DNA of 64,000 bases from Longimicrobiales bacterium (GTDB lineage: Bacteria; Gemmatimonadota; Gemmatimonadetes; Longimicrobiales; Gaopeijiaceae), in NCBI GenBank assembly GCA_965115975.1, contig OZ220468.1, positions 629,060-693,059 on the forward strand, given 5' to 3'. Under the pieces are notes generated by a model, which worked only from the letters and a program-made list of their open reading frames with translations, did not search any database and had not been told where the DNA came from. The number at the start of each line of letters is the position of its first letter. The first letter of the stretch is position 1. The position numbers were made by a program, and so were the translations under genes. Shown in pieces: positions 15,190 to 61,327 of this stretch.

Positions 15190-16369
15190 GTCCTCCGCCT
15201 GCCGTCTCCGGGTGCGCCGGAAGGAGGCGGCTCCCGGATCGGACGCATTGCGACGCCTTGCGCGCGTTTCCGGCTAGGGACGGTTGCTTCGCCCGGGCCC
15301 GTCGATGACCCAACCGACCCGTCGGCTACCGCCCGGATGGGGGCTGTGGACGAAGCGCCGACGCTCGGGGAGAGTACGGTCCCGTCGACCGGGCGGCTGC
15401 CGGTCGACGGGACCGGGAGCGATCCTCTCTATCGGCTCCCCGAGCTCAAGGCCGCGAGCGTCACCTTGGGGCCAGTCTTCCATGGCGTGTCGCCGCCGCT
15501 CTGTCTGGCTTCGATCCACATGACGATCTCCTTCTTGAGATCCACATGGGTAAGAGTCAATGGGGTGCCGGACGCGGTTCGGAACCGGCCGTAGTTCGTG
15601 GTCGTCGTGACGGGCCACGCGAGCACCTGCCTCTTGTCCCAGGCGTCCGTGCCGCTAGTCTCGTGATACAGCGTGCTCTTCGCGCCGCCCAGCGCCGCGA
15701 CGGTCAGCTGCCAGACGATCCGCTGATGCGACCTCTCGTTCGTCGTGGCGACCCAGTCGAGGGTGATCGTGTCGTTGTTCGCGCTGCGACGCGCCTTGAT
15801 CGACCTCGTCACGGGGTCGATCGCCGGCACTTGCACGTACAGCGTGTCGCCCGCCACCGTCGTGGTGCGGTCGCGCGGGTTGGTCCTCGCGTGGACTTCC
15901 ACCCAGAGCGTGAACGTGTCGTCCGGGAAATCCAGCGTGCTGCGCCGCGCCGACCGAAGGAAGTACCCCTTTTTCGTCCAATCGGCTTGGGTGCTGGTTC
16001 CCATGTCCTTCGAGTCCAGGAACAGGGGGCTGGCGTTGTTGATCGAGTCGCCCTGCATGTAGTAGAAGAAGACCGCGGGTCGGGTGCCGGTGCCGGGCGG
16101 CATTCCGTAGTTCCGTCCGGCCACGAGCTCGCGGCTGAAGTACCGCACGATGACGTCGTCCGGCTGCTTGTGAACGGCGATGGAATCCCTGACCTCGTTG
16201 GCGACGCTGTCCACCGTCGCCCGGGCCCGCTCGGCGGCGAGGTCCAGGAACAGCCAGGTGTTCGCCTGGATTCTGCCGAAGTCCCTGCGCTGTCCGGGAG
16301 CCAGCGAGACCCGCTGGTTGTCGTTCGGATAGTCGAAGCCGTGGAACACGTCCTTCGTCGCCACGACGT

Positions 16370-20122
<3,753 letters not shown>

Positions 20123-20148: not shown

Positions 20149-20162
20149 GTCAGATTTCTGAC
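20149..20162. promoter_or_regulatory. palindromic motif GTCAGATTTCTGAC (candidate operator)
   Basis: Perfect 6+6 inverted repeat, 30 nt distal to the G33 tract. Related copies at 25459-25472 and 25478-25491. Confidence 0.4.
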
Positions 20163-20526: not shown

Positions 20527-23500
20527 CTATCCGGCGGGTTTGGCGGGAAGCGTGACCTCCGTGTCGCCCGTCGTCCATTCGTCGTCGCTTTCGAGCCTGT
20601 GGTCGATCCTGAAGACGATGGCCGCCTCCATCTCCTTGGCGGTGACGTCGACCGAGCTGCCGCTCGCGGTCTTGAATCCGTGGGGACCCGCGCCGTGCCA
20701 TCTCACCCGTCGGGCCAGACGCGACGACGCCAGATTTTCGTCCTCCCACGGCGTGTAGTACACGGTCGCGCCCGCGCCGCCCAGAGCCGCGACCGACGGA
20801 AGGGTCAGCGCGACCCTCTGCAGCGATGTGAACCCGCCGCGCTGATCGAGCGGCTGACCGGCGGACAGAGGGTTAGACACTACGGAGTTCGCCTTCCAGT
20901 CCAAGACGATCGAGTCGTCGGACCGTCTGGCCTTGATCGATTTCGCCATGAAGTCCATCGCGGGCACCGTCAAGGCGACGACGACGCTGTCCGTCCGGGT
21001 TGATCCGCTGGAGGAGTACGCTCCCGCGAACATGTAGACGTACAAGGTGAAGGACTTTGCAGGCGGATACGATCCGTCATTCGCGGTCCCGACGAACCCG
21101 ATCCTGTCCGTGTAGTTTTCGGTGTTGCCGAGGCTCTCGTGTTTCGTAACGGGGTTGTGGGCTCTTCCAAGCGGACGGCTGGAATCCTCCGGCATGTAGT
21201 ACGACCTATTGATGTACACCTCGTCGGTGTTGGCGGGGAGTCCGTAGTCCCGCGCGTCGTTGACCCTGATCCAGGCGCGCGCCCGGGTGGCGGTGCTCGC
21301 GGGCGGCCCGTTCGCCTGGTCCGCAGCGAGCATGCCCTTGCGATCCCAGTGCTTGACCACGATACCAAGCGCAAGAGGGGTGTATCGAGTCGGCACTAGG
21401 CTCTCGCCGCCCTCGCTGGCCGCGCCCCCAAGGCCGCCGATCGTGGTCGTGCCGCCGGAGCGCGTGACCACAGCGCTGTCCGCCCGTTTCGGATGGCGGC
21501 GATTTCTGACGTTATCGATCACCCAGCGCTCCGCGACAGCGTCCACGAGCATCCAGGTGTTCGTCTGGATCTTGCCGAAGTCCTTGCGCTGTCCCGGAGC
21601 CGCCGAAACTTGGCGGCCGCCGCTCGGGTAGTCGAAGCCGAAGCCGTCGAAGGTCTCTCCAGGGACTAGGTTGCCGAGGGAGTCGATGCGGGGAATGCTC
21701 TTCGTGGCCCTGATGTCGTAGTCGCCGAAGGGCACCTTGAACCGGAACGTCCCCGACGCCCCCGTCTTCATCGAATCGACTACGATGGTCGTGTCGCTCG
21801 CCTTGCGCACCTTGATCCAGACGCCCGGTTCTGGACCGTCGCCCGGAGGTCGAACGAGCCGGCCGGTGATCGTCGCCTTCTGGAACCCGGTGAAGTTGGC
21901 GCCCGAGATGTCGGTGCCCGACGTCGCGGGCAGCGGCAGCGACTCCGGTGCGAACGTGTAGTCCGCGTGCTTGGCTGTGATCGAGACCGTGCCGGACGAT
22001 TTCGCCGCGCCCTGCGCTTGGAAGGTGCCATCGGCGCCCGTCACGAGCTTGCCCTTGTTCGCGCCGCTCTTGGCCGCGTTCTCCGGCGCCTTGCCGTCGA
22101 TCATGATCTCGACGCCCGCGATCGGCGCGTTCGAGCCCGAAGCCACCACTGTGCCGCTGTAGAACACCGGATCGCCCGAACCGCCCACCACGAAGTCGAT
22201 CCGAGTCGGCGAGTTGGCCATGAACTTCGCCTTCCCGCTGCCGTCCCTGAAGCCCTTGCGGGTCCCCTTGGCGTACAGCGAGTCCTTCTTCGCGGACACG
22301 CCCTCGACGACGTAGCGACCGTACATGTCGGTCATGGCCGTCGTTCCGTTGACGTCGACCGTCACGCTGTCGACGCGGAACTTGTCCGAGCCCGTGACGA
22401 TCCCGTAGACGGTGGTCGTCGTCGGCGTCACGTCGAGCGCGACGGCCGCGTCCAGCGGACTGAACGCGTCGCCGAGCTTCGTCGTCGAGCCCTTCGCGCC
22501 CAGCATCGCCTGCCAGCCCGCCGGGACGGCCAGCTTGTAGACGCCGGCCGCGATCTTCCCGAAGTCGAACGCGTTCGTGTCGTCCCAGGTCGTGGCCTTG
22601 GCGTTCGCCTTGGCCGTCGTCTGGCTGTGCTCCATGCCGGCCAGGTTCTTGCCCGCGACGGGCGTCAGGCCGACCGTCACGCCGGCGACGGGCGTCTCGC
22701 TCACGGCGCCGAAGCCCTCGCCGGACTTCTTGATCGATTTCTTCCCGATCGTCCCGCTGACGCCGTGCTTCATGACGTAGGCGAAGGTGCCGCACTCGCC
22801 GAAGTCCTGTCCGGCGGGCTCCGTCGCCGTCAACGGACACAGCTCGACCGTCGGGCTGAACCCGCCGTGATCGCCGAACGCGCCCTTCACGATCCCGTTC
22901 GCGTCAGCGTCGCGGAACGCGAAGAGCTCGGCGGGATCGAGCAGCATCACGTCCGTAGCCGTCGACTTCTCCTTGGCCGAGACCATCACTTGAGCGTCGG
23001 CCGGCAGCTTCTTGAACGAGATCACGCCGTTCTTGTCCGACTTGTTCTTCGGATCCCAGACGTCGCTCGCGAACATGCGGCTGCGCCCGAGCTCGTCGAT
23101 GTAGCGCACGTCGACGTCGATCTTGCCGGACATGCGCTCGTCGCCCCCGAGGACGCTGCCGGTGTAGCCCTCGGCCTGGTCCATCTCGTGGTGCACGTAG
23201 ACGGTGAGCGTCTGCGTCGTCCACATCGCCTCGAGCACGTCGGCGTCCATCGTCGCCATCAACTCGAGGCCCGAGTGCTCGATCGTGACGGGCGTCGAGC
23301 TGAACGTCTCGCCGCCGTCGAGCTTGTCGACCTGAGTCGAGTCGAGCATGACGGTGTACATGGCGGGCAGGTCGGAGGCCATGGCCGTGGTCTTGAACAT
23401 GGCCGTGCCGTCGGCGCCGAGCTTCGCGGGCGCGCCGTCGACGGCCTTGCTGCCCATCATGACGGAGATGGCCCAGTCGGCGAGCGGCTTGCCGCCGCCC

Positions 23501-25314
23501 ATGTCGGTCATGACGGTAGCGCCCGAGATCTTGGCGTCGACCATGAGGTTGAGGACGTCGAAGTCGTTCATGGCCATGGCCGTCTTCGATTTCGCGTTCC
23601 ACTCGATCTTCTGCATGGCGTCGGCTTCGACGGCGTAGTCGTCGCTCGAGACCGAAGCCCAGACCATCGAGCCGGTGGCCATCGAGCGGGCGAAGCGGAT
23701 CGAGGCCATGCCGTCGTCGCCCGCGTCGGCCGAGGCGATCTTCGAGTCGCCGTCCGAGTCGGCGTAGAGCGTGACGGTGGCGCCGGCGAGCGTGTCGCCG
23801 TGCATGTCGCCGTGGCGGAGCGTGACGGTGTAGTGGACGGTCTGGTGGGTGATGTCGTAGGGCAGGCGCTGCACGACGGTCTGGCCGACGGCGACGTCGA
23901 GCTGGTATCCGGTGGCGGGACCGCCGTAGGCGTAGTCGCCGAGCGTCTGAGCGACGGTCGGGCTGCTGACGACGGCGAGCGCGTAGGCGCCTGCGCGCAG
24001 CCCGGAGAACTCGAACATGCCGTTGTCGTCGGTCATGCCGGACATCTGGTCGCCGACGGCCGGACCGACGAGGACGAGGGGGACGCCAGCGATCTCGAGG
24101 GCGTCCTCGCCCTGGTCGTGCATGTCGTTTTTCGTGGCTTCGTCGACGAAGAGCATGCCGGAGACGCTCGCCGTGGTGGCGTGCTCGCCCATGAAGTTGA
24201 CGGTGGCGGACTCGTCGTCGGCGAGCGTGACGTCCATGCGGGTCGTGGAGAAGACGTAGGCCTCGCTGGCGACCATGATCGAGACGGTGTAGTCGCCGGC
24301 GGCCAGCGCGGAGAAGGAGTAGAAGCCGCTGGCGTCGGTGGTGTCCGTCATCGAGTCCATGCCGGCGGACGCGAGCGTGACGGCGACGCCACTGATGCCC
24401 ATGCCGGCGACGCTGACCTGGCCGACGACGCCTGATGTGCGCAAGTACGCGCCGTCGAAGCGGACGTTGGCGGTCTCGCCCAGGGAGACGGTGATGCTCT
24501 GGGAAGTGGCGTCGAAGCCGATGGCGTCGGCGTCGTAGCCGGAGACGGCGACGGAGTAGTCGCCGGCGCGGAGCTTCGAGAAGGCGTACTGGCCGCCGGC
24601 GTCCGTGGTGGTCGTGCGGTCGTCGCCCTCGCCCGAAAGGCTGACGGTGACGCCCGCGAGACCGGAGCCCTCGACGCTGATCTGGCCGCGGATGCCTGCG
24701 GTGCGGAGGTACGTGCCGTCGAAGCTGACGACCTCGGTGTCGCCGACGCCGAGATCCGCGGAGCCCGAGGTGTTCGGGAAGCCGACGTTGTCGGCGTCGA
24801 ACCCGGAGATCTCGATGGAGTAGCGACCCGCGCGGAGGCCGGTGAAGCTGTACTGGCCGCTGGCGTCGGTCATGGCCTCGGCGTCGGACATGCCGGAGAG
24901 GTGGACGGTGACGCCGGAGAGCCCGTCGCCCTCGACGGTGACGGTTCCCCGGACGCTCGCCGTGCGGATGTAGGAGCCGGAGAAGTCGACGGTGGCGGTG
25001 CCGCCGGTCTCGCCGACAGTCACGGGCATCGAGGTGGCGTCGAAGCTGGCTTCGGCGGGGAAGCCTGAGATGGAGACGGTGTAGCTGCCGGGCTCGAGGT
25101 CGTCGAAGCGGTAGGAGCCGCCGCCGGCGGTGGCGGTGGTCGCGCCGCCGGAGAGGGCGACGGAGACGCCGTCGGCGCCCTGGCCCTCGATGGAGACCTG
25201 ACCGGCGACGGAGCCGGTGGGCGGGGGAGGCGCGACGTCCTCCCCGCAGGCGATCGCCACCAAGGGCAGCATTGCCAGCGTTCCCACCAGCAGCCTCTTC
25301 TTCGTCGCGTCCAT
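20527..25314 (-). CDS. giant surface lipoprotein B (paralogue of A) with CarboxypepD_reg-like repeats and a different C-terminal region
   Basis: 1595 aa. Lipoprotein signal MDATKKRLLVGTLAMLPLVAIACG. First ~1200 aa colinear with gene A, last ~400 aa only weakly similar. Confidence 0.85.
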   Translation of the reverse strand: MDATKKRLLVGTLAMLPLVAIACGEDVAPPPPTGSVAGQVSIEGQGADGVSVALSGGATTATAGGGSYRFDDLEPGSYTVSISGFPAEASFDATSMPVTVGETGGTATVDFSGSYIRTASVRGTVTVEGDGLSGVTVHLSGMSDAEAMTDASGQYSFTGLRAGRYSIEISGFDADNVGFPNTSGSADLGVGDTEVVSFDGTYLRTAGIRGQISVEGSGLAGVTVSLSGEGDDRTTTTDAGGQYAFSKLRAGDYSVAVSGYDADAIGFDATSQSITVSLGETANVRFDGAYLRTSGVVGQVSVAGMGISGVAVTLASAGMDSMTDTTDASGFYSFSALAAGDYTVSIMVASEAYVFSTTRMDVTLADDESATVNFMGEHATTASVSGMLFVDEATKNDMHDQGEDALEIAGVPLVLVGPAVGDQMSGMTDDNGMFEFSGLRAGAYALAVVSSPTVAQTLGDYAYGGPATGYQLDVAVGQTVVQRLPYDITHQTVHYTVTLRHGDMHGDTLAGATVTLYADSDGDSKIASADAGDDGMASIRFARSMATGSMVWASVSSDDYAVEADAMQKIEWNAKSKTAMAMNDFDVLNLMVDAKISGATVMTDMGGGKPLADWAISVMMGSKAVDGAPAKLGADGTAMFKTTAMASDLPAMYTVMLDSTQVDKLDGGETFSSTPVTIEHSGLELMATMDADVLEAMWTTQTLTVYVHHEMDQAEGYTGSVLGGDERMSGKIDVDVRYIDELGRSRMFASDVWDPKNKSDKNGVISFKKLPADAQVMVSAKEKSTATDVMLLDPAELFAFRDADANGIVKGAFGDHGGFSPTVELCPLTATEPAGQDFGECGTFAYVMKHGVSGTIGKKSIKKSGEGFGAVSETPVAGVTVGLTPVAGKNLAGMEHSQTTAKANAKATTWDDTNAFDFGKIAAGVYKLAVPAGWQAMLGAKGSTTKLGDAFSPLDAAVALDVTPTTTTVYGIVTGSDKFRVDSVTVDVNGTTAMTDMYGRYVVEGVSAKKDSLYAKGTRKGFRDGSGKAKFMANSPTRIDFVVGGSGDPVFYSGTVVASGSNAPIAGVEIMIDGKAPENAAKSGANKGKLVTGADGTFQAQGAAKSSGTVSITAKHADYTFAPESLPLPATSGTDISGANFTGFQKATITGRLVRPPGDGPEPGVWIKVRKASDTTIVVDSMKTGASGTFRFKVPFGDYDIRATKSIPRIDSLGNLVPGETFDGFGFDYPSGGRQVSAAPGQRKDFGKIQTNTWMLVDAVAERWVIDNVRNRRHPKRADSAVVTRSGGTTTIGGLGGAASEGGESLVPTRYTPLALGIVVKHWDRKGMLAADQANGPPASTATRARAWIRVNDARDYGLPANTDEVYINRSYYMPEDSSRPLGRAHNPVTKHESLGNTENYTDRIGFVGTANDGSYPPAKSFTLYVYMFAGAYSSSGSTRTDSVVVALTVPAMDFMAKSIKARRSDDSIVLDWKANSVVSNPLSAGQPLDQRGGFTSLQRVALTLPSVAALGGAGATVYYTPWEDENLASSRLARRVRWHGAGPHGFKTASGSSVDVTAKEMEAAIVFRIDHRLESDDEWTTGDTEVTLPAKPAG

Positions 25315-25432
25315 TCGATTCGCTCTCCAGCATCGGTTGTACAGGGACCCAGTGCTACCGCAGAGCGCAGGTACAGCAAAATTGGTGCCATCAAGGTCGA
25401 TTTTTCGTAAAAATAATGATCACAGCATATTC
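21717..25432 (-). repeat. direct repeat copy B (3,716 bp)
   Basis: See copy A; fixed offset of 5,347 nt. Confidence 0.9.
25315..25432 (-). promoter_or_regulatory. conserved AT-rich 118-nt leader/promoter region of giant gene B
   Basis: Homologous to 19968-20085. Contains tttttcgtaaaaataatgatcacagcatattc. Confidence 0.5.
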
Positions 25433-25454
25433 GGGGGGGGGGGGGGGGGGGGGG
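25433..25454. repeat. homopolymeric G22 tract
   Basis: 22 consecutive G counted, again starting 119 nt upstream of the start codon (gene B). Confidence 0.95.
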
Positions 25455-25458
25455 CGCC

Positions 25459-25491
25459 GTCAGATTACTGGACGGTCGTCAGATTGCTGAC
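25459..25491. promoter_or_regulatory. two copies of the CGTCAGATTnCTGrAC motif (candidate operators)
   Basis: gtcagattactgga at 25459-25472 (imperfect) and gtcagattgctgac at 25478-25491 (5+5 inverted repeat), immediately distal to G22. Confidence 0.4.
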
Positions 25492-35845: not shown

Positions 35846-37835
35846 GTGCGCCGTGGAAAGGCGCCGGTTCCCAGCGGGTGCGAATCCCGTCCGGCAAGGG
35901 TCGTTCCAGCCGGTAGCAACCAGAGCGGGTCGTGGAGGTAACGACATGGCTTGAAGCACTTTGGGTAGACGGACCGCCGTGGGCGGTTCAGCGAACATGC
36001 GGGCCGTAACGCGAGTGAACGCCGAGCAGGCCTCGAAAAGGCTAAGCCGCGGAGGCCGACCCGCCGACATTACGGGGAAGGCTGCCAGCGGTCGGGAAGC
36101 GAACGACGAGAGCACCGACCGCCTCCGCCGGGGTAGTGGCGACGGCACGCATGGAAGAGGGAGGCGGTAGCAACACGGGAAGCCCTGTCGGTGGCGTCGC
36201 GCGGCGCCAACTGGAACCCCGCGAGGGGCAGGCTGGGCCGGCAGGGTGGCGGATGGGCCCGTAGTACTGGAGACGCCGGGTAACGCCGGTCGAGGGAAGG
36301 GGCCCTGCTTCGAGAGCGGTACGGAAAGGGGGAAGGGACGTGACCACTGGCGAGAGCCTACCAGGGTCGGAGAAGGTTCGGAGACTCCAGACCGTGCTAC
36401 ACGCGAAAGCCAAGGAGGAACCTAAAGCGCGGTTCTATACGCTCATCGACAAGGTGTGGCGCGACGATGTTCTCGCGGAAGCCTGGAGGCGGGTACGCCG
36501 CAACGGCGGATCGGCCGGGGTGGACGGAGAGACGTTCGCGGACATCGAGGAGTACGGCGTGGAGCGGTGGCTTGGGGAACTGGCGCGAGATCTGAGGGAG
36601 GGCAGCTATGCGCCGCGAGCGGTGCGGCAGGTGCTGATCCCGAAGAAACAGCCTGGGAAGTACAGGCCGCTGGGCATTCCCTGCATAAGGGACCGGGTGG
36701 CGCAGACGGCGGCGTTGCTGGTGTTGACGCCGATCGTCGAGGCCGATTTGCAACCGGAGCAGTACGCCTATCGGCCGGAGCGGAGCGCGCACGATGCGAT
36801 CCAGCGGGTGCATCGGCTCCTGCACCAGGGGCACAGGGAGGTGGTCGACTGCGACTTGGCCAACTACTTCGGCGAGATACCGCACGCGGAGCTGATGAAG
36901 TGCTTCGCCCGGCGCATCAGCGACGGGCGGATGTTGAAGCTCCTGAAGGCGTGGCTGGAGATGCCGGTGGAGGAGGACGACGGGGAGGGCGGCGTACGTC
37001 GCACGAACCGGGCGCGCAGGGAGAGGAAGGGGACCCCCCAAGGGTCACCGTTCTCGCCGCTGGCCAGCAACCTGTACATGCGGCGATTCGTGCTGGGCTG
37101 GAAGACGCTGGGGTACGCCCAGCGGTTCCGGGCGGAGATCGTGAACTACGCGGACGACCTGTGCGTGGTGAGCAAGGCCCCGGCGGCGGAAGTGCTGGCG
37201 GCGGTCGAGCGACTCATGGAGAGGCTGAAGCTACCGGTCAACGAACGGAAGACTCGATGTCTGCGGTGCCCCGAAGAGGCGTTCGAGTATCTGGGGTACC
37301 GGGTGGGGCGCAACTACCGAGCGAGCGGGCGGGGGTGGTACATCGGGACCCGGCCCAGCAAGGGGAGCGTCCAGGGCATTGTCCGCAAGGTCAGCGAGAT
37401 GACGGCGAAGCGGTACACCGGACTTCCGGTGGAGGTGGTCGTAGAGCGGATCAACCAAGCGGTATACGGGTGGGCGCGCTACTTCAGCCTTGGGCAGGTG
37501 ACCCCTGCGTACCGAGCCGTCAACAAGCACACGGCCAAGCGGTTACGCCGGTGGCTCTGTTCGAAGCACAAGGTGAAGTCCGGGCAACACGCGCGGTTCC
37601 CGGAAGAGAGGCTGAGAGAGCTCGGCCTGTTTTGCCTGACGCGACGGACGATGGGCCTTCCGAAAGCGAAGGCGTGATCTCGTCGGAAAGCCGGATGCGG
37701 GAAAACCGCACGTCCGGTTTGATGGGCGGGGACTGGAAACGCAGCCATGGGAGTCGGCCTTGGAGGCCCGGAGCGAAAGCTACCCGGGATCACCCCACCG
37801 GACCCTAAAGCCGGCGCGCCAGTCCCCGACCCTAC
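35846..37835 (+). mobile_element. group II intron copy 1 (1,990 nt)
   Basis: Starts GUGCG and ends ...CCCUAC. Domain V AGCCGGATGCGGGAAAACCGCACGTCCGGTT at 37689-37719. RT/maturase ORF in domain IV. Candidate EBS1 GACATT at 36066-36071 complements the 5'-exon AATGTC. Confidence 0.85.
36340..37677 (+). CDS. group II intron reverse transcriptase/maturase (no endonuclease domain evident)
   Basis: 445 aa. RT blocks RVRRNGGSAGVDG, IPKKQPGKYRPLGIPCIRDRVAQ, VVDCDLANYFGEIPH, GTPQGSPFSPLASNLYM, YADDLCVV. C-terminal X/maturase WARYFSLG. Confidence 0.92.
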   Translation: MTTGESLPGSEKVRRLQTVLHAKAKEEPKARFYTLIDKVWRDDVLAEAWRRVRRNGGSAGVDGETFADIEEYGVERWLGELARDLREGSYAPRAVRQVLIPKKQPGKYRPLGIPCIRDRVAQTAALLVLTPIVEADLQPEQYAYRPERSAHDAIQRVHRLLHQGHREVVDCDLANYFGEIPHAELMKCFARRISDGRMLKLLKAWLEMPVEEDDGEGGVRRTNRARRERKGTPQGSPFSPLASNLYMRRFVLGWKTLGYAQRFRAEIVNYADDLCVVSKAPAAEVLAAVERLMERLKLPVNERKTRCLRCPEEAFEYLGYRVGRNYRASGRGWYIGTRPSKGSVQGIVRKVSEMTAKRYTGLPVEVVVERINQAVYGWARYFSLGQVTPAYRAVNKHTAKRLRRWLCSKHKVKSGQHARFPEERLRELGLFCLTRRTMGLPKAKA

Positions 37836-37869: not shown

Positions 37870-39859
37870 GTGCGCCGTGGAAAGGCGCCGGTTCCCAGCG
37901 GGTGCGAATCCCGTCCGGCAAGGGTCGTTCCAGCCGGTAGCAACCAGAGCGGGTCGTGGAGGTAACGACATGGCTTGAAGCACTTTGGGTAGACGGACCG
38001 CCGTGGGCGGTTCAGCGAACATGCGGGCCGTAACGCGAGTGAACGCCGAGCAGGCCTCGAAAAGGCTAAGCCGCGGAGGCCGACCCGCCGACATTACGGG
38101 GAAGGCTGCCAGCGGTCGGGAAGCGAACGACGAGAGCACCGACCGCCTCCGCCGGGGTAGTGGCGACGGCACGCATGGAAGAGGGAGGCGGTAGCAACAC
38201 GGGAAGCCCTGTCGGTGGCGTCGCGCGGCGCCAACTGGAACCCCGCGAGGGGCAGGCTGGGCCGGCAGGGTGGCGGATGGGCCCGTAGTACTGGAGACGC
38301 CGGGTAACGCCGGTCGAGGGAAGGGGCCCTGCTTCGAGAGCGGTACGGAAAGGGGGAAGGGACGTGACCACTGGCGAGAGCCTACCAGGGTCGGAGAAGG
38401 TTCGGAGACTCCAGACCGTGCTACACGCGAAAGCCAAGGAGGAACCTAAAGCGCGGTTCTATACGCTCATCGACAAGGTGTGGCGCGACGATGTTCTCGC
38501 GGAAGCCTGGAGGCGGGTACGCCGCAACGGCGGATCGGCCGGGGTGGACGGAGAGACGTTCGCGGACATCGAGGAGTACGGCGTGGAGCGGTGGCTTGGG
38601 GAACTGGCGCGAGATCTGAGGGAGGGCAGCTATGCGCCGCGAGCGGTGCGGCAGGTGCTGATCCCGAAGAAACAGCCTGGGAAGTACAGGCCGCTGGGCA
38701 TTCCCTGCATAAGGGACCGGGTGGCGCAGACGGCGGCGTTGCTGGTGTTGACGCCGATCGTCGAGGCCGATTTGCAACCGGAGCAGTACGCCTATCGGCC
38801 GGAGCGGAGCGCGCACGATGCGATCCAGCGGGTGCATCGGCTCCTGCACCAGGGGCACAGGGAGGTGGTCGACTGCGACTTGGCCAACTACTTCGGCGAG
38901 ATACCGCACGCGGAGCTGATGAAGTGCTTCGCCCGGCGCATCAGCGACGGGCGGATGTTGAAGCTCCTGAAGGCGTGGCTGGAGATGCCGGTGGAGGAGG
39001 ACGACGGGGAGGGCGGCGTACGTCGCACGAACCGGGCGCGCAGGGAGAGGAAGGGGACCCCCCAAGGGTCACCGTTCTCGCCGCTGGCCAGCAACCTGTA
39101 CATGCGGCGATTCGTGCTGGGCTGGAAGACGCTGGGGTACGCCCAGCGGTTCCGGGCGGAGATCGTGAACTACGCGGACGACCTGTGCGTGGTGAGCAAG
39201 GCCCCGGCGGCGGAAGTGCTGGCGGCGGTCGAGCGACTCATGGAGAGGCTGAAGCTACCGGTCAACGAACGGAAGACTCGATGTCTGCGGTGCCCCGAAG
39301 AGGCGTTCGAGTATCTGGGGTACCGGGTGGGGCGCAACTACCGAGCGAGCGGGCGGGGGTGGTACATCGGGACCCGGCCCAGCAAGGGGAGCGTCCAGGG
39401 CATTGTCCGCAAGGTCAGCGAGATGACGGCGAAGCGGTACACCGGACTTCCGGTGGAGGTGGTCGTAGAGCGGATCAACCAAGCGGTATACGGGTGGGCG
39501 CGCTACTTCAGCCTTGGGCAGGTGACCCCTGCGTACCGAGCCGTCAACAAGCACACGGCCAAGCGGTTACGCCGGTGGCTCTGTTCGAAGCACAAGGTGA
39601 AGTCCGGGCAACACGCGCGGTTCCCGGAAGAGAGGCTGAGAGAGCTCGGCCTGTTTTGCCTGACGCGACGGACGATGGGCCTTCCGAAAGCGAAGGCGTG
39701 ATCTCGTCGGAAAGCCGGATGCGGGAAAACCGCACGTCCGGTTTGATGGGCGGGGACTGGAAACGCAGCCATGGGAGTCGGCCTTGGAGGCCCGGAGCGA
39801 AAGCTACCCGGGATCACCCCACCGGACCCTAAAGCCGGCGCGCCAGTCCCCGACCCTAC
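37870..39859 (+). mobile_element. group II intron copy 2 (1,990 nt, apparently identical to copy 1)
   Basis: Sequence repeats copy 1 with a period of 2,024 nt (1,990-nt intron + 34-nt spacer). All track ORFs inside recur with identical translations. Confidence 0.85.
38364..39701 (+). CDS. group II intron reverse transcriptase/maturase (copy 2)
   Basis: Translation identical to 36340-37677. Confidence 0.92.
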   Translation: MTTGESLPGSEKVRRLQTVLHAKAKEEPKARFYTLIDKVWRDDVLAEAWRRVRRNGGSAGVDGETFADIEEYGVERWLGELARDLREGSYAPRAVRQVLIPKKQPGKYRPLGIPCIRDRVAQTAALLVLTPIVEADLQPEQYAYRPERSAHDAIQRVHRLLHQGHREVVDCDLANYFGEIPHAELMKCFARRISDGRMLKLLKAWLEMPVEEDDGEGGVRRTNRARRERKGTPQGSPFSPLASNLYMRRFVLGWKTLGYAQRFRAEIVNYADDLCVVSKAPAAEVLAAVERLMERLKLPVNERKTRCLRCPEEAFEYLGYRVGRNYRASGRGWYIGTRPSKGSVQGIVRKVSEMTAKRYTGLPVEVVVERINQAVYGWARYFSLGQVTPAYRAVNKHTAKRLRRWLCSKHKVKSGQHARFPEERLRELGLFCLTRRTMGLPKAKA

Positions 39860-39912
39860 CTCTTTCGGATGGTCTTCGGTGGTTCACGCAACCCGATCCG
39901 GGAGAGGAGCAG

Positions 39913-41223
39913 ATGGAACTCAGTTTGAAGGAGCGCGACCGCGTGTCGGTGCTGAGGCAGGTGAGCGAAGGGGTGCTGACGGCGTCTGCGGGCGCCCGGC
40001 GCATCGGCGTCACGCCGCGTCACTTCCGACGCTTGCTGCGGCGGTTCGAGGCGGAAGGCGACGCCGTCGCGGTCCACGGGCTTCGAGGTCGGGCCTCGAA
40101 CCGGGCGTTGCCTCCAGAGGTTCGCCAGGCGGTGCTGGCGCTCGCGGAGGATCCGATGTTCCGCGACTTCGGACCGACGCTGCTCGCCGAACACGTCGAG
40201 CTGGCGTGCGGGCTGCGGGTGAGTCGGGAGACGGTGCGGCGCTGGTTGCTGGAGTCCGGGTTGCGGACGCGCAGTCGCAAGCGGGCGAAGCACCGGAGTC
40301 GGCGTCCCCGCCGGGCGGCGCTGGGGGAGTTGGCGCAGTGGGACAGCTCGGTGCATCGGTGGCTCGAGGATCGCGTCGAGGGCGACCTGACGCTGATCGC
40401 GCTCCACGACGACGCGACGAGCCGTCTGATGGCGGCCCGGTTCGTGGCCCGCGACAACGGGGCGGAGAACCGGCGCGTGATCATCGACTACCTGCGGCGT
40501 CACGGTCGGCCCTTGGCGGTGTACACGGACCACGCGGGCCACTTCGGGCAGTGGCAGTCGGAGAAGGAGAAGCGAACGGATACGATCATCTCGAAGGCGT
40601 TGGGCGAACTGGACATCGGGCTGATCCTGGCCAGCTCTCCGCAGGCCAAGGGGCGCGTCGAGCGCACCTTCGGGACGGCGCAGGACCGGCTGATCAAGGA
40701 GATGCGCCTCGCGCGGATCTCGGATCTCGAGAAGGCGAACGAGTTCCTCGAGGAGTACTGGGCGCCGCTGTGGAACGAACGGTTCGCGACGGCGCCTGCG
40801 GAGGCGCGCGACGCGCACCGTCCGTTGCCGGCGGGGGTGGATCTGGACGCTCTGTTCGCGGAGACGGTGGTCCGCAAGGTCGCTCGGGACTTCACGATCC
40901 GCTTCAAGAACGAGCTCTGGCAGATCCCGGAGCACGAAGCTACGGACTTGGCGCCCGGCGCTGAGATCGTGGTCGAACGGCGGTTGGACGGCGAACTGCG
41001 CTTCCGCAGTGGGTCCCGGTACCTGGACGTCGAGTCGCTGGGCTGTGCGCGAAGCCGCCCGAAAGCTCCGGCGCAGCCCGCCGAAGAGAAGACCCCGAAG
41101 CCGCTCGGCAAGCCGCCGAAGCCAGGCTCGGGCCACCCGTGGCGCCTCCGGATCCAAGCGGAAGTGCAGCGCGCGCTGGCCAGGCGGAAGCGGCGCGAGG
41201 AACGGGGTCGAAGCGACGAGTGA
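39913..41223 (+). CDS. DDE (rve-type integrase core) transposase with N-terminal HTH
   Basis: MELSLKERDRVSVLRQV...RRIGVTPRHFRRLL HTH. Catalytic-core landmarks LAQWDSSVHRW, VYTDHAGHF, SPQAKGRVERTFGTAQDRL. ATG39913 inside track ORF 39784-41223. Confidence 0.85.
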   Translation: MELSLKERDRVSVLRQVSEGVLTASAGARRIGVTPRHFRRLLRRFEAEGDAVAVHGLRGRASNRALPPEVRQAVLALAEDPMFRDFGPTLLAEHVELACGLRVSRETVRRWLLESGLRTRSRKRAKHRSRRPRRAALGELAQWDSSVHRWLEDRVEGDLTLIALHDDATSRLMAARFVARDNGAENRRVIIDYLRRHGRPLAVYTDHAGHFGQWQSEKEKRTDTIISKALGELDIGLILASSPQAKGRVERTFGTAQDRLIKEMRLARISDLEKANEFLEEYWAPLWNERFATAPAEARDAHRPLPAGVDLDALFAETVVRKVARDFTIRFKNELWQIPEHEATDLAPGAEIVVERRLDGELRFRSGSRYLDVESLGCARSRPKAPAQPAEEKTPKPLGKPPKPGSGHPWRLRIQAEVQRALARRKRREERGRSDE

Positions 41224-55888: not shown

Positions 55889-56654
55889 AACGGTGCGGGG
55901 ACCCGCGCGGCGAGGCGCGGCGCGGCGGCGGATCGCGAGCCGGAGGCGGGCGACGGGTCTGGCGGTCGCGGTCGCCGCGTCCCTGCCGGTCCTGCCGGCG
56001 GACGGCGCGGGCGCCCAGCGGCGGCCGGCGAACCGACTGACGGCGGAGGAGGAGGCGGCGGGCTGGCGTCTGCTCTTCGACGGGACGCTCGACGGATGGA
56101 GGGGCTACCGCCGCGACGACGCGCCCGGCGGGTGGTCGGTCCAGGGCGACGCCCTGGCGTTCCGGCCGGGCGCCGACGACGGCGACCTGATCACCGCGGA
56201 CGTCTTCGCCGATTTCGAGCTCGTCCTCGAGTGGAAGGTGGGCCCGGGCGGGAACAGCGGGATCTTCTACCGCGCGACCGAGGAGGAGCCGTATCCGTAC
56301 TGGACGGGCCCCGAGTTCCAGATCCTGGACAACGAGGGACACCCGGACGGGCGCGTGCCGGAGACGTCGGCCGGCGCCAACTACGGGCTCCACGCGCCGC
56401 TTCGCGACGTCGCCCGCCCGGCCGGCGAGTGGAACGAGGCGCGGATCTCGGTCCGGGGCTCGAGCGTCGAGCACTGGCTGAACGGCGTCCGGATCGTCGC
56501 GTACGAGTTGGGCGACGAGGACTGGACGCGCCGGGTGGCGGGGACCAAGTTCGCCGACTGGCCCAAGTACGGTCGGGCCTCGGCGGGGCACGTCGGGCTT
56601 CAGGACCACGGCGATCCCGTCTGGTACCGGAACGTGCGCATTCGCTCCTTCTGA
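55878..56654 (+). CDS. DUF1080 (3-keto-disaccharide hydrolase-like) domain protein, secreted
   Basis: [50 protein letters not shown]. Confidence 0.85.
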
Positions 56655-56815
56655 ATCCGCCCCGGGGATCCGATCCGGAGCCGACCCGCCCGCTTGAATC
56701 GGACCCGACGACGCGCCGGACCTTCTTGCGCTTCGGGTCCGCGGGCGCGGACATTGAATCGGGATGTGAAGGGCGGGGGTGCGGGCGGGCATTGGGACGG
56801 GGAGCGCGCGGCACG

Positions 56816-58639
56816 ATGAACGACGCGGCGAAGAGGCGCCTGCCGCCGCGGGCCACCCTGGCCGCGCTGGTCGCGCTCTCGGGGTGCGCCGACGTGGCGC
56901 TCGAGCCCGAGAGCGTGCCGACGCGCCTGGCGATCACGCCCCAGGACACCCTGGTCGTCGAGGGTCGCCCGGCCAAGCTCACGCTGCAGGTGTTCGACCA
57001 GGACGACCGCCCGATGCGCGGTCCGCCGTCCTGGGCGCCCGCGGACTGGCGCGCTTCCGAAGCGGACGCCGTCGAGATCGGGTGGGACGGGAGCCTGACC
57101 ACGCTCAAGGGCGCGGACGTGAGGGTCGTGGCCAAGACGGCCGGGCTCGAGACGTGGACGCGGCTGCGCGTCAATCCCGTGAGCGTGACGCTCTCGGTCG
57201 GCGCCGTCTACGTGAACCAGGTGATCCAGAACGCGCGCGCGGGCGTGCCGATCGTCGCCGGCCGTCCGGGCGTCCTGCGCGTCTTCCTGACCGGCGACGA
57301 GGTGAGCTTCTACGAGCCGCGCGCGCGCGCCGAGTTCGTCGCCGCCGGCCGGGTCGTGCACGCGGCGACGCTGGACGCGTCGTCGGACGTCCTGCCCGCC
57401 GACGTGCAGGAGGGCCGGCTGGACCGGTCCTTCAACGCAGCGGTTCCGGGCGAGGTCCTGCAGCCCGGCGTCGGGCTGGTCCTCGAGCTCGACGTGGACG
57501 GCGCCGTGCCCAAGGCGCCCGGAACCGAGACCCGGTTCCCCGCCGAAGGCGTCATGCCGCTCGACGTGATCGCGATGCCGACGCTCCGCCAGGTCTTCGT
57601 GCCCGTGCTTCTCCGCTCGAACGCCGACGAGCGGGCGCTCGCCGCGGTGCTCAACTGGATTCGGGGGGCGGGCCCCGACGGCGAAAACTCGGAGATGGCT
57701 CGCAAATTGCTGCCCGTGAACGAGATGGAGGTCACGGTGCAGGAGCCCTACACCACGACCGCGAACCTCAGGGTGCAGTCGGGCTGGGATCGCCTGCTCC
57801 GGCAGATGCACGCCAAGTGGCAACTCGAAGGCCGAGAGGGCTACTACTACGGGGTGTTGCAGAACGGCTCCGGGTTCCTTTGGGGCGGCTACGCCTACAT
57901 CGGCCTTCCCGTCAGCGTGGGCGTGACCAGGAACGCCATCTACGCCCACGAGCTGGGCCACAACATGGACCTGAGCCACGCGCCCTGCGGGGGCGCGGCG
58001 GGGCCCGACCCGCAGTACCCTTACGACGGCGGCGGCATCGGCCAGTGGGGGTACGACGTGGCGCGAAACGCGCTGATCGACCCGAGACAGTACAAGGACC
58101 TGATGGGGTACTGCCGGCCGGACTGGGTCAGCGACTATCAGTTCCTGCGCGCGATGAGATTCCGGCTCGAGACCGAGCGCGACCTCCTCGCGCCCCCGCC
58201 GCCGGCGGAGAGGACGCTGATGCTGTGGGGAGGCGCGAGGGACGGGGAGCTGCAGCTCGAGCCCGCGTTTCTCCTGGACGCTCCGGTCTCGCTGCCGACC
58301 GAGGACGGGCCGTATCGTCTGCAGGGGTTCGGGCCGGACGGAGGCGAGCGGTTCTCTCTGTCCTTCTCCCCGATGCCGATGGAGTTCGGAGGCGGGGGCT
58401 TTCACTTCCACGTGCCCTACGACCCCGGGCGCGACGGCGCTCTGGAGCGCGTGGCGCTCTCCGGGCCCGAGGGGCACGTCGAGCTGACGCACGGCGGCGC
58501 GGCGACGATGGCGATTCTGCGGGACCGCGAATCCGGGCGGATCCGCGCCATGCTGGACGACTGGAGCGGCGGGCTGAATCGAGTCGCGGGGGACGTCGAG
58601 GCGCTGGTCAGCGCCGGCTTGCCCGGAGAGCTGCGATGA
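56816..58639 (+). CDS. metzincin-like zinc metalloprotease lipoprotein, paralogue 1 (Big_2-like N-domain)
   Basis: Lipobox LVALSGCAD. Ig-like ITPQDTLVVEGRPAKLTLQVFD. Zinc motif YAHELGHNMDLSHAPCGG (HExxHxxxxxH). Confidence 0.8.
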   Translation: MNDAAKRRLPPRATLAALVALSGCADVALEPESVPTRLAITPQDTLVVEGRPAKLTLQVFDQDDRPMRGPPSWAPADWRASEADAVEIGWDGSLTTLKGADVRVVAKTAGLETWTRLRVNPVSVTLSVGAVYVNQVIQNARAGVPIVAGRPGVLRVFLTGDEVSFYEPRARAEFVAAGRVVHAATLDASSDVLPADVQEGRLDRSFNAAVPGEVLQPGVGLVLELDVDGAVPKAPGTETRFPAEGVMPLDVIAMPTLRQVFVPVLLRSNADERALAAVLNWIRGAGPDGENSEMARKLLPVNEMEVTVQEPYTTTANLRVQSGWDRLLRQMHAKWQLEGREGYYYGVLQNGSGFLWGGYAYIGLPVSVGVTRNAIYAHELGHNMDLSHAPCGGAAGPDPQYPYDGGGIGQWGYDVARNALIDPRQYKDLMGYCRPDWVSDYQFLRAMRFRLETERDLLAPPPPAERTLMLWGGARDGELQLEPAFLLDAPVSLPTEDGPYRLQGFGPDGGERFSLSFSPMPMEFGGGGFHFHVPYDPGRDGALERVALSGPEGHVELTHGGAATMAILRDRESGRIRAMLDDWSGGLNRVAGDVEALVSAGLPGELR

Positions 58640-58812
58640 GCGCCCGGTCGGTCGGGCGCGCCGCGTCCGGCGGGCTTTCGGACGACCCCGGCCTGGGTCG
58701 TCCTCCGCGGGTCTGCGCGGCGCGCAACGACGATTGGCAGCCACTTCGGCTCCGCCGACCCGACGATCCCCGGAACCTCCTTGCGATCCGGGCCTGCGGA
58801 CGCAGACATTGA
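58636..58812 (+). pseudogene. decayed 5' remnant of the beta-barrel gene
   Basis: Starts ATGAGCGCCCGGTC overlapping the protease stop, exactly as 60689 does. DNA alignable to 60689-~60870 with frameshifting indels (for example gattggcagccacttcggctccgc versus gatcggcagccactccggctccgc). Confidence 0.6.
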
Positions 58813-58871
58813 ATCGGGACTTTCAAGGGCGGATTGCGGGCGGGTCTCGGGACGGGGGAGTGCGCGGCACG

Positions 58872-60692
58872 ATGAACGACGCGACGGGAAGAGGTGCGCG
58901 AGGTTGCGCGCGCGCGACGATGGCGACCGCGCTGGTCGCGCTTTGGGGGTGCGCCGACATGGCTCTCGAACCTGAGAGCGTGCCGACGCGTTTGGCGATC
59001 ACGCCTCAGGACACCCTGGTCACGGAGGGCCACCCCGCCAGGTTGACGTTGCAGGTGTTCGACCAGGACGACAATCCGATGCGGGGTCCTCCGTCCTGGG
59101 CGCCCGCCGATTGGCGCGCCTCCGATGCGGCCGCCGTCGAGATCGGATGGGACGGGAGCCTGACCACGCTCAAGGGCGCGGACGTGAGGGTCGTGGCCAC
59201 GACGGCCGGACTCGAGACGTGGACGCGATTGCGCGTCAATCCCGTGAGCGTGACGCTCTCGGTCGGCGCCGTCTACGTGAACCAGGTGATTCAGAACGCG
59301 CGCGCGGGCGTGCCGATCGTCGCCGGCCGCCCGGGCATTCTGCGCGTCTTCCTGACCGGCGACGAGGTCAGCTTCTACGAGCCGCGGGTGCTCGCCGAGT
59401 TCGTCGCCGACGGCCGGGTCGTGCACACGGCGACGCTGGACGCGTCGTCGGACGTCCTGCCCGCCGACGTGCAGGAGGGACGGCTGGACCGGTCCTTCAA
59501 CGCGATGGTTCCGGGCGAGGTTCTGCAGCCCGGCGTCGGGCTGGTCCTCGAACTCGACGTGGACGGCGCCGTGCCCAAGGCGCCCGGAACCGAGACCCGG
59601 TTCCCCGCCGAAGGCGCCATGCCGCTCGACGTCGTCGAGATGCCGGTGCTCCGCCAGGTCTTCGTGCCCGTGCTCCAGCGTTCGAACCCAGACGAGCGGG
59701 TGCTGGACTGGACCCGGGCGGCGAGCCCCGACGGCCGAAACACGGAAATGGCTCGCAAATTGCTGCCCGTGAACGAAATGAAGGTCACGGTGCAGGAACC
59801 CTACACCACGACCTCGAACCTCAGGGTGCGGTCGGGCTGGGATCGCCTGATCCGGCAAATGAGAACGAAGTTCCAGCTCGAGGGACGAGAGGGCTACTAC
59901 TATGGGGCGGTGTACAACACCGGGGGATTCGCGGTCGGGGGCTTGGGCTACATCGGCTATCCGGTCAGCGTGGGCGTGGCCAGGGACGATGTCTACGCCC
60001 ACGAGCTGGGCCACAACATGAACCTGGGCCACGCGCCCTGCGGAGGCGCCGGGGGGCCCGACCCGCAGTACCCGTACGACGGCGGCGGCATCGGCCAGTG
60101 GGGTTACGACGTGAAGCGGAACGTGCTGATCGACCCGAGGCAGTACAAGGACCTGATGGGGTATTGCCGGCCCGACTGGGTCAGCGACTATCAGTTCCTT
60201 CGGGCGATGAAATTCCGCCTCGAGGACGAGGGCGACCTCCTCTTGACCCCGCCGCCGGCGGAGAGGACGCTGATGCTTTGGGGAGGCGCGAGGGACGGGG
60301 AGCTGCAGCTCGAGCCCGCGTTTCTCCTGGACGCTCCGGTCGCGCTGCCGACCGAGGACGGACCGTATCGCCTGCAAGGATTCGGGCCCGACGGGATCGA
60401 GCGGTTCTCGCTGTCCTTCTCCCCGGATCCGGTCGAATTCGGCGGCGGGAGCTTCCATTTCCACGTGCCCTACGACCCCGGGCGCGACGGCGCTCTGGAG
60501 CGCGTGGCGCTCTCCGGGCCCGAGGGGCACGTCGAGCTGACGCACGGCGGCGCGGCGACGATGGCGATTCTGCGAGACCGCGAGTCCGGGCGGATCCGCG
60601 CCATGCTGGACGACTGGAGCGGCGGGCTGAATCGAGTCGCGGGGGACGTCGAGGCGCTGGTCAGCGCCGGCTTGCCCGGAGAGCTGCGATGA
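58872..60692 (+). CDS. metzincin-like zinc metalloprotease lipoprotein, paralogue 2
   Basis: Lipobox LVALWGCAD. YAHELGHNMNLGHAPCGG. Highly similar to paralogue 1, with a near-identical ~80-aa C-terminus. Confidence 0.8.
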   Translation: MNDATGRGARGCARATMATALVALWGCADMALEPESVPTRLAITPQDTLVTEGHPARLTLQVFDQDDNPMRGPPSWAPADWRASDAAAVEIGWDGSLTTLKGADVRVVATTAGLETWTRLRVNPVSVTLSVGAVYVNQVIQNARAGVPIVAGRPGILRVFLTGDEVSFYEPRVLAEFVADGRVVHTATLDASSDVLPADVQEGRLDRSFNAMVPGEVLQPGVGLVLELDVDGAVPKAPGTETRFPAEGAMPLDVVEMPVLRQVFVPVLQRSNPDERVLDWTRAASPDGRNTEMARKLLPVNEMKVTVQEPYTTTSNLRVRSGWDRLIRQMRTKFQLEGREGYYYGAVYNTGGFAVGGLGYIGYPVSVGVARDDVYAHELGHNMNLGHAPCGGAGGPDPQYPYDGGGIGQWGYDVKRNVLIDPRQYKDLMGYCRPDWVSDYQFLRAMKFRLEDEGDLLLTPPPAERTLMLWGGARDGELQLEPAFLLDAPVALPTEDGPYRLQGFGPDGIERFSLSFSPDPVEFGGGSFHFHVPYDPGRDGALERVALSGPEGHVELTHGGAATMAILRDRESGRIRAMLDDWSGGLNRVAGDVEALVSAGLPGELR

Positions 60693-61327
60693 ACGCCCGG
60701 TCCCATGGGCGCGCCGCGCCCGAGAGCTCTGGAGCGACCATGGCCGGGGCCGTCCTCCTGGGGCTCGCGCTGTGCGCGCCGCCGGCGACGGCGCAGTCCT
60801 TGGCCGGCGGCCTGTTTCAGGGCGAAGTGCGGGGAGGACTGACGATCGGCAGCCACTCCGGCTCCGCGGCCGCGCTGGACGTCGCTCCGTCGATCTCCTT
60901 CGACGTCGTCGTGCGCAGGCAGGTGACGAGGTCGTTCGCCGCGTACGGGGGCTTTTTCCGCACGGCCTTCGGGTGCGAGGAGGGGTTCTGCACCGAGCGC
61001 GAGGTCGTCGTCGTCGGCAATCACGGCGCCCTGGGCGTCGAGTGGGGGAGCGGCGGGCCCTGGCTTCGGGCCGGCCTCCTCGTCGGGTCGACCGAGGGCA
61101 GGAGCGGGGTGGCCGCCGGGGGCGTTCGCGGAACCGAGAGCTCGCCCGAGGTGGGCTTCGGCGTGCACGCGGCCGGAGGCTTGACCGTCGGCGCCGGACG
61201 CTTCCGCTTCATGCCCGGCCTGTCCTACCGGTGGCTGAGCGCGAAGACCGCGGCCGAATCGGACCACGCCATCGCGTTCGCGCTGGACCTCGGGGTGGGC
61301 TTCGTCGTCGGCGGGGGCGGACCCTGA
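60689..61327 (+). CDS. outer-membrane beta-barrel protein (OmpW/OmpA-beta-barrel-like, small)
   Basis: Signal AGAVLLGLALCAPPATAQS. Alternating-polarity strands. C-terminal AFALDLGVGFVV. ATG overlaps the protease stop. Confidence 0.6.
   Translation: MNARSHGRAAPESSGATMAGAVLLGLALCAPPATAQSLAGGLFQGEVRGGLTIGSHSGSAAALDVAPSISFDVVVRRQVTRSFAAYGGFFRTAFGCEEGFCTEREVVVVGNHGALGVEWGSGGPWLRAGLLVGSTEGRSGVAAGGVRGTESSPEVGFGVHAAGGLTVGAGRFRFMPGLSYRWLSAKTAAESDHAIAFALDLGVGFVVGGGGP

Follow-up and report, generated by a model that had tools for sequence, protein, structure and literature searches.

What is the role of a run of 22 identical nucleotides that lies at a fixed distance upstream of a giant lipoprotein gene, and what does it mean that the neighbouring paralogue carries a run of 33 at the equivalent position? 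In the window, i.e., the entire 64-kb stretch of DNA that was analysed, these G22 and G33 runs are the only homopolymers of at least 8 nt. The G + C content of the window is 70.4%, and the chance expectation for a G22 or C22 run, calculated from base composition alone (0.366^22 x 64000 x 2), is about 1e-5 per window. As the two genes that follow them, termed here gene A and gene B, are both located on the minus strand, the tracts read as poly-C on the coding strand (Table 1).

According to the initial annotation, the two tracts are positionally equivalent, and indeed each of them is found 118 nt from the respective ATG. Counting also bears out that the tract of gene B is 11 nt shorter than that of gene A (C22 versus C33), where both lengths might be a few nucleotides off since the assemblies appear to derive from long reads, which are prone to miscall long homopolymers. 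The same annotation had taken the 118 nt for a leader. This is contradicted by the presence of a sigma-54 promoter within these 118 nt, which leaves the tract outside the predicted transcript, in the case of gene B at about -69 to -90 relative to the predicted transcription start.

Genes A and B and their genomic surroundings

The N-termini of both encoded proteins consist of a basic start and a hydrophobic stretch leading into a lipobox of the form ...IAC (VAIAC in gene B), after which six CarboxypepD_reg/transthyretin-like repeats follow in either protein. The two proteins share more than 90% of their first approximately 1200 residues and have drifted apart in the last approximately 400, so that their earlier description as tip variants is appropriate. 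An AlphaFold model of the C-terminal tip of gene B is all-beta with a mean pLDDT of 71, and a fold search with this model returned only generic FnIII/Ig-like tandems with low TM-scores; a sequence search of NCBIfam and the PDB likewise yielded no informative name for the giant lipoprotein. Judged from sequence and model, which show a lipoprotein signal peptide with a lipobox, a series of beta-sandwich domains and an all-beta tip that varies, the members of the family are candidate envelope proteins. The family comprises 16 paralogues including A and B (P0001-P0015 and P0121) on one contig of 3,064,649 bp, and its relatives are found in metagenome-assembled genomes (MAGs) of Longimicrobiales (Gemmatimonadota).

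Besides two sub-threshold matches, an Rfam scan of the region from 15 to 27 kb revealed nothing. One of the two, to the 'skipping-rope' RNA (window 20677-20752, minus strand; 26.7 bits versus a gathering score of 36.7, E = 0.011), is located inside the 3' end of gene B and is probably a chance match.

Further along in the window, two open reading frames of 445 aa each (36340-37677 and 38364-39701, plus strand) lie 2 kb apart and match in length and in codon-position G + C content. A domain scan, run on the first of them only, found reverse-transcriptase and group II intron maturase domains, and the pair give the impression of a group II intron in two tandem copies. They are followed by an HTH/transposase-like open reading frame at 39784-41223. 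Finally, at 56096-63168 on the plus strand, three consecutive open reading frames (847, 652 and 798 aa), each with a Peptidase_M66 domain (StcE-like metalloprotease), form a tandem array of paralogues.

Architecture of the upstream regions

Matches to the -24/-12 consensus of sigma-54 promoters are present between tract and start codon at both genes. The perfect consensus TGGCAC-N5-TTGCT occurs only twice in the window, namely at genes A and B, compared to an expectation of 0.01, and the spacing between the -24 GG and the -12 GC (TGGCAC-N5-TTGCW) is exact in both promoters. No sigma-70-like promoter was detected near either tract, and no intrinsic terminator between gene B and the tract of gene A or upstream of the tract of gene B. 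The DNA connecting tract and promoter is 42 nt long with a G + C content of 31-33% at both loci, which places the GG of the promoter 43 nt from the tract in either case; an IHF consensus is absent from this AT-rich segment and from the vicinity of the tracts.

On the far side of the tracts, the palindrome TCAG-N4-CTGA is found. There are two copies of it in the window, both upstream of the tracts of genes A and B, compared to an expectation of 0.03. Repeated palindromes about 80-150 bp upstream of the promoter, as expected of sites for an upstream activator, are thus present in the sequence. In the direction of the genes, the order is therefore palindrome(s), poly-C, AT-rich segment, sigma-54 promoter, an untranslated region of about 50 nt and the ATG. 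Judged by its motifs, this layout corresponds to a sigma-54 promoter of the enhancer-dependent kind in which the putative looping DNA contains a homopolymer, and the tract is, by its position, the predicted spacer between the candidate enhancer and the sigma-54 promoter. As to its origin, it may be speculated that the tract arose by expansion of a short C run beside the proximal enhancer site.

Table 1. Positions of the tracts and of the associated features in the window and in related loci
Feature	Sequence	Position	Strand	Remarks
Gene A, paralogous lipoprotein	window	15429..19967	-	1512 aa; identical to P0005
sigma-54 promoter of gene A	window	20028..20043	-	TGGCACCGAATTTGCT; motif match
Poly-C tract of gene A (sister of the gene B tract)	window	20086..20118	-	G33 on plus strand
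Enhancer-like palindrome of gene A	window	20149..20162	.	GTCAGATTTCTGAC (GTCAG-N4-CTGAC); TCAG starts 119 nt upstream of -24 GG
Gene B, lipoprotein	window	20527..25314	-	1595 aa; identical to P0121
Predicted 5' UTR of gene B	window	25315..25364	-	about 50 nt; start inferred from -12 element
Ribosome-binding site of gene B	window	25323-25328	-	GGAGAG; from sequence
sigma-54 promoter (-24/-12) of gene B	window	25375..25390	-	TGGCACCAATTTTGCT; motif match
AT-rich segment, tract of gene B to promoter	window	25391..25432	-	31% G + C (window 70%)
Poly-C tract of gene B	window	25433..25454	-	G22 on plus strand
Proximal imperfect palindrome copy of gene B	window	25459..25473	.	GTCAGATTACTGGAC on plus strand; about 19 nt from distal copy, 5 nt from tract
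Distal enhancer-like palindrome of gene B	window	25478..25491	.	GTCAG-N4-CTGAC; TCAG starts 101 nt upstream of -24 GG
Poly-C tract	L004	2695-2714		C20
Poly-C tract	L012	2704-2714		C11
Poly-C tract of tandem neighbour	L003	8031-8054		C24
Poly-C tract of 149-aa lipoprotein gene	L044	719-733		C15
Palindrome-to-GG distance, no tract	seven OZ220479.1 paralogues			100 nt; extra sites at 121 and 81
Palindrome-to-GG distance, no tract	L076, L080, L088			98-99 nt
Palindrome-to-GG distance, no tract	L083, L085			80 nt
8-nt repeat, example	L023	2552-2599
8-nt repeat, variant	L059			(CGCCAGTC)9

Related loci with and without a tract

The same layout recurs at 14 genes of OZ241864.1, a related MAG of a different species whose giant proteins are 55-67% identical to those of the window. 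Here, too, the order is palindrome, poly-C (pure, 9-26 nt), AT-rich segment and GGCAC-N5-TTGC. The set is made up of 12 paralogues, a tandem neighbour (L003) and the gene for a lipoprotein of 149 aa (L044). All 16 tracts, two from the window and 14 from OZ241864.1, are uninterrupted, and that they have stayed pure although the two species are deeply diverged argues for their maintenance by selection. At L044 (684-1420), palindrome, C15, AT-rich segment and GGCCC-N5-TTGC precede the predicted 149-aa lipoprotein, the gene for which sits just upstream of a giant paralogue; as the cassette is found here in front of a different gene, it is not confined to the giant ones.

In a comparison of 60 loci, the promoter motif GG[CT]A[CT]-N5-TTGC was 57-fold enriched upstream of the genes of the family (37 occurrences in 51 kb versus 15 in 1.18 Mb). 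Also the palindrome recurs upstream of Longimicrobiales homologues, in two or three copies about 20-21 bp apart, and in homologues that have no tract its distance to the GG is fixed at 98-100 nt, or else at 80 or 121 nt. A scan of metagenomes with the full architecture pattern gave 0 matches, and a protein-based scan of metagenomes recovered exclusively homologues without a tract, which are used here as a reference for the spacing. In three such relatives (L021, L050 and L053, at about 2700-2720), GGCCCG follows the proximal palindrome, where positions 25455-25459 of the window may be compared.

In OZ220479.1, which belongs to a tract-free sister lineage, every giant lipoprotein paralogue carries a tandem repeat with a unit of 8 nt, (GCCAGCCC)n with n = 6-12 (loci L014, L016, L019, L020, L022-L025, L038, L049 and L057-L059). 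The sigma-54 promoter is followed at about 230 nt by this repeat, which is part of a 5' leader of about 690 nt and, by its sequence and location, appears to add to the regulatory region of the family another variable repeat that is independent of the first.

Spacing between palindrome and promoter

With respect to the individual segments of the upstream region, each genome has its own constant interval between tract and promoter, which is 43 nt in the window and 51-55 nt in OZ241864.1; the segment between palindrome and tract falls into two classes of 20-26 nt and 31-34 nt in the 16 promoters, and the tracts themselves range from 9 to 33 nt. The resulting palindrome-to-GG distances (n = 16) are 99, 99, 100, 100, 100, 101, 101, 101, 101, 102, 108, 109, 111, 117, 119 and 124 nt. 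Ten of the 16 tract-bearing promoters, that of gene B (101 nt) among them, are thus found at 99-102 nt and the other six at 108-124 nt. Differences between the remaining segments are compensated for by the tract, as is evident from the sums of other segments plus tract, which are 79+22 (gene B), 83+18, 86+13, 89+11, 89+12 and 91+9.

When the tract lengths were shuffled among the first 14 loci, nine of which lie within 99-101 nt, the permutation test gave p = 1.5e-5, and p ~0.001 when identical combinations were collapsed and any 3-nt window was considered, while a Rayleigh test for a helical phase of 10.5 bp with all 16 loci gave R = 0.59 and p ~0.004, all of these p-values being optimistic because the paralogues are related by descent and their independence is overstated. 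The pattern as such is clear and suggests that the enhancer-promoter distance is under selection, the tract being the segment that would absorb the variation. That the tract offsets the other spacer segments across 16 promoters lends indirect support to the view that its length matters.

As assembled, the C22 tract brings gene B to 101 nt, which is the canonical spacing (98-100 nt in the tract-free relatives) and from which gene B is predicted to be ON, and the C33 tract brings gene A to 119 nt, 2 nt less than the 121 nt of the next canonical position. That ten out of 16 promoters are at the canonical spacing is equally compatible with frequent switching and with evolutionary tuning to a majority state that is stable.

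Tract mutability and recombination boundaries

A BLAST comparison of the two loci in the window resulted in a single match of 3761 nt with 92.6% identity, which starts within the tract (A 20107, B 25454) and extends into the coding sequence, and nothing upstream of the tract could be aligned. The statement in the initial annotation that the high-identity repeat stops at the tracts is therefore correct, but its conclusion that the tract marks the boundary of the unit is not. In a MAFFT alignment a conserved palindrome is found just past the tract, so that the functional unit reaches beyond the tract and has its boundary at this palindrome.

The loci L004 and L012 of OZ241864.1 share a 2.7-kb upstream flank that is 98.6% identical right into the tract, past which about 260 nt comprising promoter and leader are unalignable before the coding sequence follows with 94% identity. 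This mosaic structure places a recombination breakpoint exactly at the tract. In addition, the two tracts differ in length (C20 versus C11) right beside this almost identical flank, which implies that the length of the tract changes faster than the sequences around it. Two independent pairs, A/B and L004/L012, thus have high-identity repeats whose end coincides exactly with the tract. Among all these copies there are no silent cassettes, each being a full gene with a promoter of its own. The common flank of L004 and L012 also holds internal repeats of about 300 nt.

A proposed function of the tract and its alternatives

Polymerase containing sigma-54 requires contact with an activator that is bound upstream and reaches it via a short DNA loop, so that both the distance and the helical face between activator sites and promoter matter. 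Long and pure homopolymer runs, in turn, slip often through slipped-strand mispairing. Homopolymers of at least about 8 nt in a promoter region, as are characteristic of simple-repeat contingency loci, are present here as C22 and C33 and, with 9-26 nt, at the 14 related promoters. On balance we favour, as the probable though not firmly established explanation, that the tract is a length-variable poly-C spacer between activator sites and sigma-54 promoter, slippage in which would switch or tune each of the paralogues. An enhancer-binding protein encoded elsewhere would bind to the palindromes TCAGAAATCTGA, the presumed activator sites, and from there would have to contact the sigma-54 polymerase by means of a DNA loop of about 100 bp. 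Being the sole length-variable piece of this interval of about 100 bp, the poly-C run would set the length and the helical phase of the loop, and replication slippage in 9-33 C:G pairs would alter it often, by which each of the 16 paralogues, A and B included, could be tuned or switched ON and OFF on its own. Since frequent slippage is to be expected in runs of 22-33 nt and since there are precedents at other promoters, the paralogues could vary independently. From the motifs and the spacing we infer the use of sigma-54 and of an enhancer-binding protein, the looping of the intervening DNA, and slippage-driven switching within populations.

Neither in the window nor in 1.13 Mb of related DNA was rpoN (RpoN box) or a gene for an enhancer-binding protein (GAFTGA) detected, and there was no enhancer-binding protein among the 20 open reading frames of the window scanned with Pfam. 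Among diderm bacteria with LPS, sigma-54 is found nearly universally (PMC3162934), and the output of sigma-54 enhancers is periodic with the helical repeat of about 10.5 bp (PMC4740811). Taken together, the length of the tract is probably a per-gene expression dial in a giant lipoprotein family of soil Longimicrobiales. In a more far-reaching reading, which is conceivable and which we put forward with some reserve, the organism would be a free-living soil bacterium with a combinatorial switchboard made up of 16 or more genes for giant lipoproteins that differ in their C-terminal tips, each gene having a hypermutable poly-C tract in the enhancer-sigma-54 loop. Slippage would rotate the activator on and off the helical face and thus constitute the first repeat-based phase variation via enhancer-promoter phasing. 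The same tracts would double as junctions for recombination, by which modules of promoter and gene are reshuffled, and the sister lineage would possess its own independent 8-nt repeat in the leader.

That the tracts are nothing but an artefact of sequencing or assembly, e.g., of two-colour poly-G reads or of homopolymer errors, is hardly credible. Long G runs are a known class of artefact and exact lengths are uncertain in long-read assemblies, but artefacts should be irreproducible in position, located at the ends of reads or contigs, and absent from relatives. The tracts are instead internal and occur at the same position in 16 promoters of two genomes, always as poly-C on the sense strand, between conserved flanks and with lengths that sum up to a constant spacing. 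This positional conservation excludes the artefact, and the tight cluster at 99-102 nt argues that errors in tract length are small. The tract is thus real and functionally constrained. If it is taken as a static structural spacer, i.e., a stiff poly(dG).poly(dC) stretch or a protein site whose length was tuned over evolution and which does not switch within populations, the ten of 16 promoters at 99-102 nt and the compensation for insertions and deletions would be expected as well, as slow tuning has the same outcome. Nevertheless, we regard this as unlikely. Relatives without a tract keep an equal spacing with ordinary sequence, so that the spacer can do without a homopolymer; pure runs of 20-33 nt generally belong to the least stable sequences in bacteria; recent duplicates differ by 9 nt in the tract with almost no substitutions in the flanks; and six of the 16 promoters are off the canonical distance.

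The two pairs of loci in which identity ends exactly at the tract rather call to mind a recombination junction or hotspot, at which the tract promotes or ends gene conversion among the paralogues and thereby shuffles promoter and coding modules. Candidate routes are a G-quadruplex on the G strand, for which G22 and G33 should be long enough to form it intramolecularly, or the heterology between unequal tracts. Such a role would be compatible with that of a variable spacer. As the explanation of the tract it appears rather improbable, though deserving of attention, given that there are just two cases of such breakpoints, that every paralogue is complete with its own promoter instead of being a silent cassette, and that recombination would account neither for the conserved place of the tract between enhancer and promoter nor for the compensation in spacing. 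This compensation is likewise left unexplained by the proposal that poly-C in read-through RNA is a loading site for Rho, which would end upstream transcription ahead of the promoter and so make the tract a transcriptional insulator. In the window, the lack of an intrinsic terminator at either tract and the orientation of both upstream genes, which are on the strand of the giant genes, are in line with an insulator; in OZ241864.1, however, the distance to the closest open frame upstream is often 0.4-1.8 kb, and in three of nine cases this frame is on the opposite strand. Altogether, an insulator function is very unlikely.

Comparison with known systems

Phase variation by simple repeats is textbook knowledge for host-adapted pathogens and for sigma-70 promoters, and we know of no phase variation in this uncultured lineage of environmental Gemmatimonadota. 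In the literature searched, no description was found of a sigma-54 promoter with a repeat in the loop to its enhancer, nor of such a loop repeat in combination with a 16-member lipoprotein family in environmental Gemmatimonadota. Accordingly, promoter phase variation by simple repeats as such is already known, and new here would be its action on the enhancer-to-promoter spacing. The tract is placed in front of a 16-member family of lipoproteins of about 1500 aa with variable tips, the control of which by the tract is proposed. If confirmed, contingency loci would have a part in shaping the surface of soil bacterial cells, perhaps with respect to phage, predators or changing substrates, and the naturally occurring series of spacer lengths could be used to study how distance and phase between enhancer and promoter control sigma-54 transcription.

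With respect to promoter anatomy, the closest likeness is to sigma-54 enhancers with multiple sites such as that of NorR at norVW (PMC2831303) and to the synthetic and natural enhancers for which an output with a period of 10.5 bp was reported (PMC4740811). As in the loci described here, enhancers of the NorR type have two to three palindromes about two helical turns apart and about 80-120 bp upstream of a GG-N10-GC promoter, and the output of multi-site sigma-54 enhancers depends on the length and phase of the loop (PMC2831303, PMC4740811). None of those described harbours a hypermutable repeat in the looping region, which is occupied here by poly-C.

With regard to recombination, the G-quadruplex element of Neisseria pilE, reportedly described by Cahoon and Seifert in 2009, is said to lie upstream of a variable surface-protein gene and to be tied to gene conversion. 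It is also said to consist of a defined motif of G3 tracts, to have a small-RNA promoter of its own and to act on silent cassettes. Here, in contrast, a pure homopolymer is located inside the promoter and all copies are full genes, with two breakpoints coinciding with tracts.

In neisserial promoters, the length of repeats determines how far promoter elements or regulator sites are apart, which results in a stochastic and reversible expression of surface proteins (PMC5320596, PMC5953494). What is affected there is the interval between -35 and -10 or a site for a repressor or IHF, whereas here it would be the distance from enhancer to sigma-54 promoter, and the neisserial hosts of such repeats are host-adapted pathogens, unlike the bacterium under study. 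In Treponema pallidum, the length of poly-G tracts at tprE/G/J, tprL and tp0126 sets promoter activity and varies within isolates (PMC7864442). As in the present case, these are G/C homopolymers upstream of several members of a family of paralogous envelope proteins; the treponemal tracts are, however, only 7-12 nt long and lie in or beside sigma-70 promoters with no enhancer or looping geometry.

In Bordetella, finally, the C-stretch of the fim promoters is placed between the site for the activator BvgA and the core promoter. Changes of a single base in the C-stretch of fim2, fim3 and fimX of Bordetella pertussis alter transcription, and the paralogues vary independently of each other (PMC1891110). 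The resemblance to genes A and B is that of poly-C in the promoter region of paralogous genes for surface structures (PMC1891110). The fim promoters are of the sigma-70 type, with a response regulator activating at close range and tracts of about 7-15 nt, whereas those described here are of the sigma-54 type, with a presumed activator about 100 bp away, tracts of 9-33 nt and a free-living environmental bacterium as their host.
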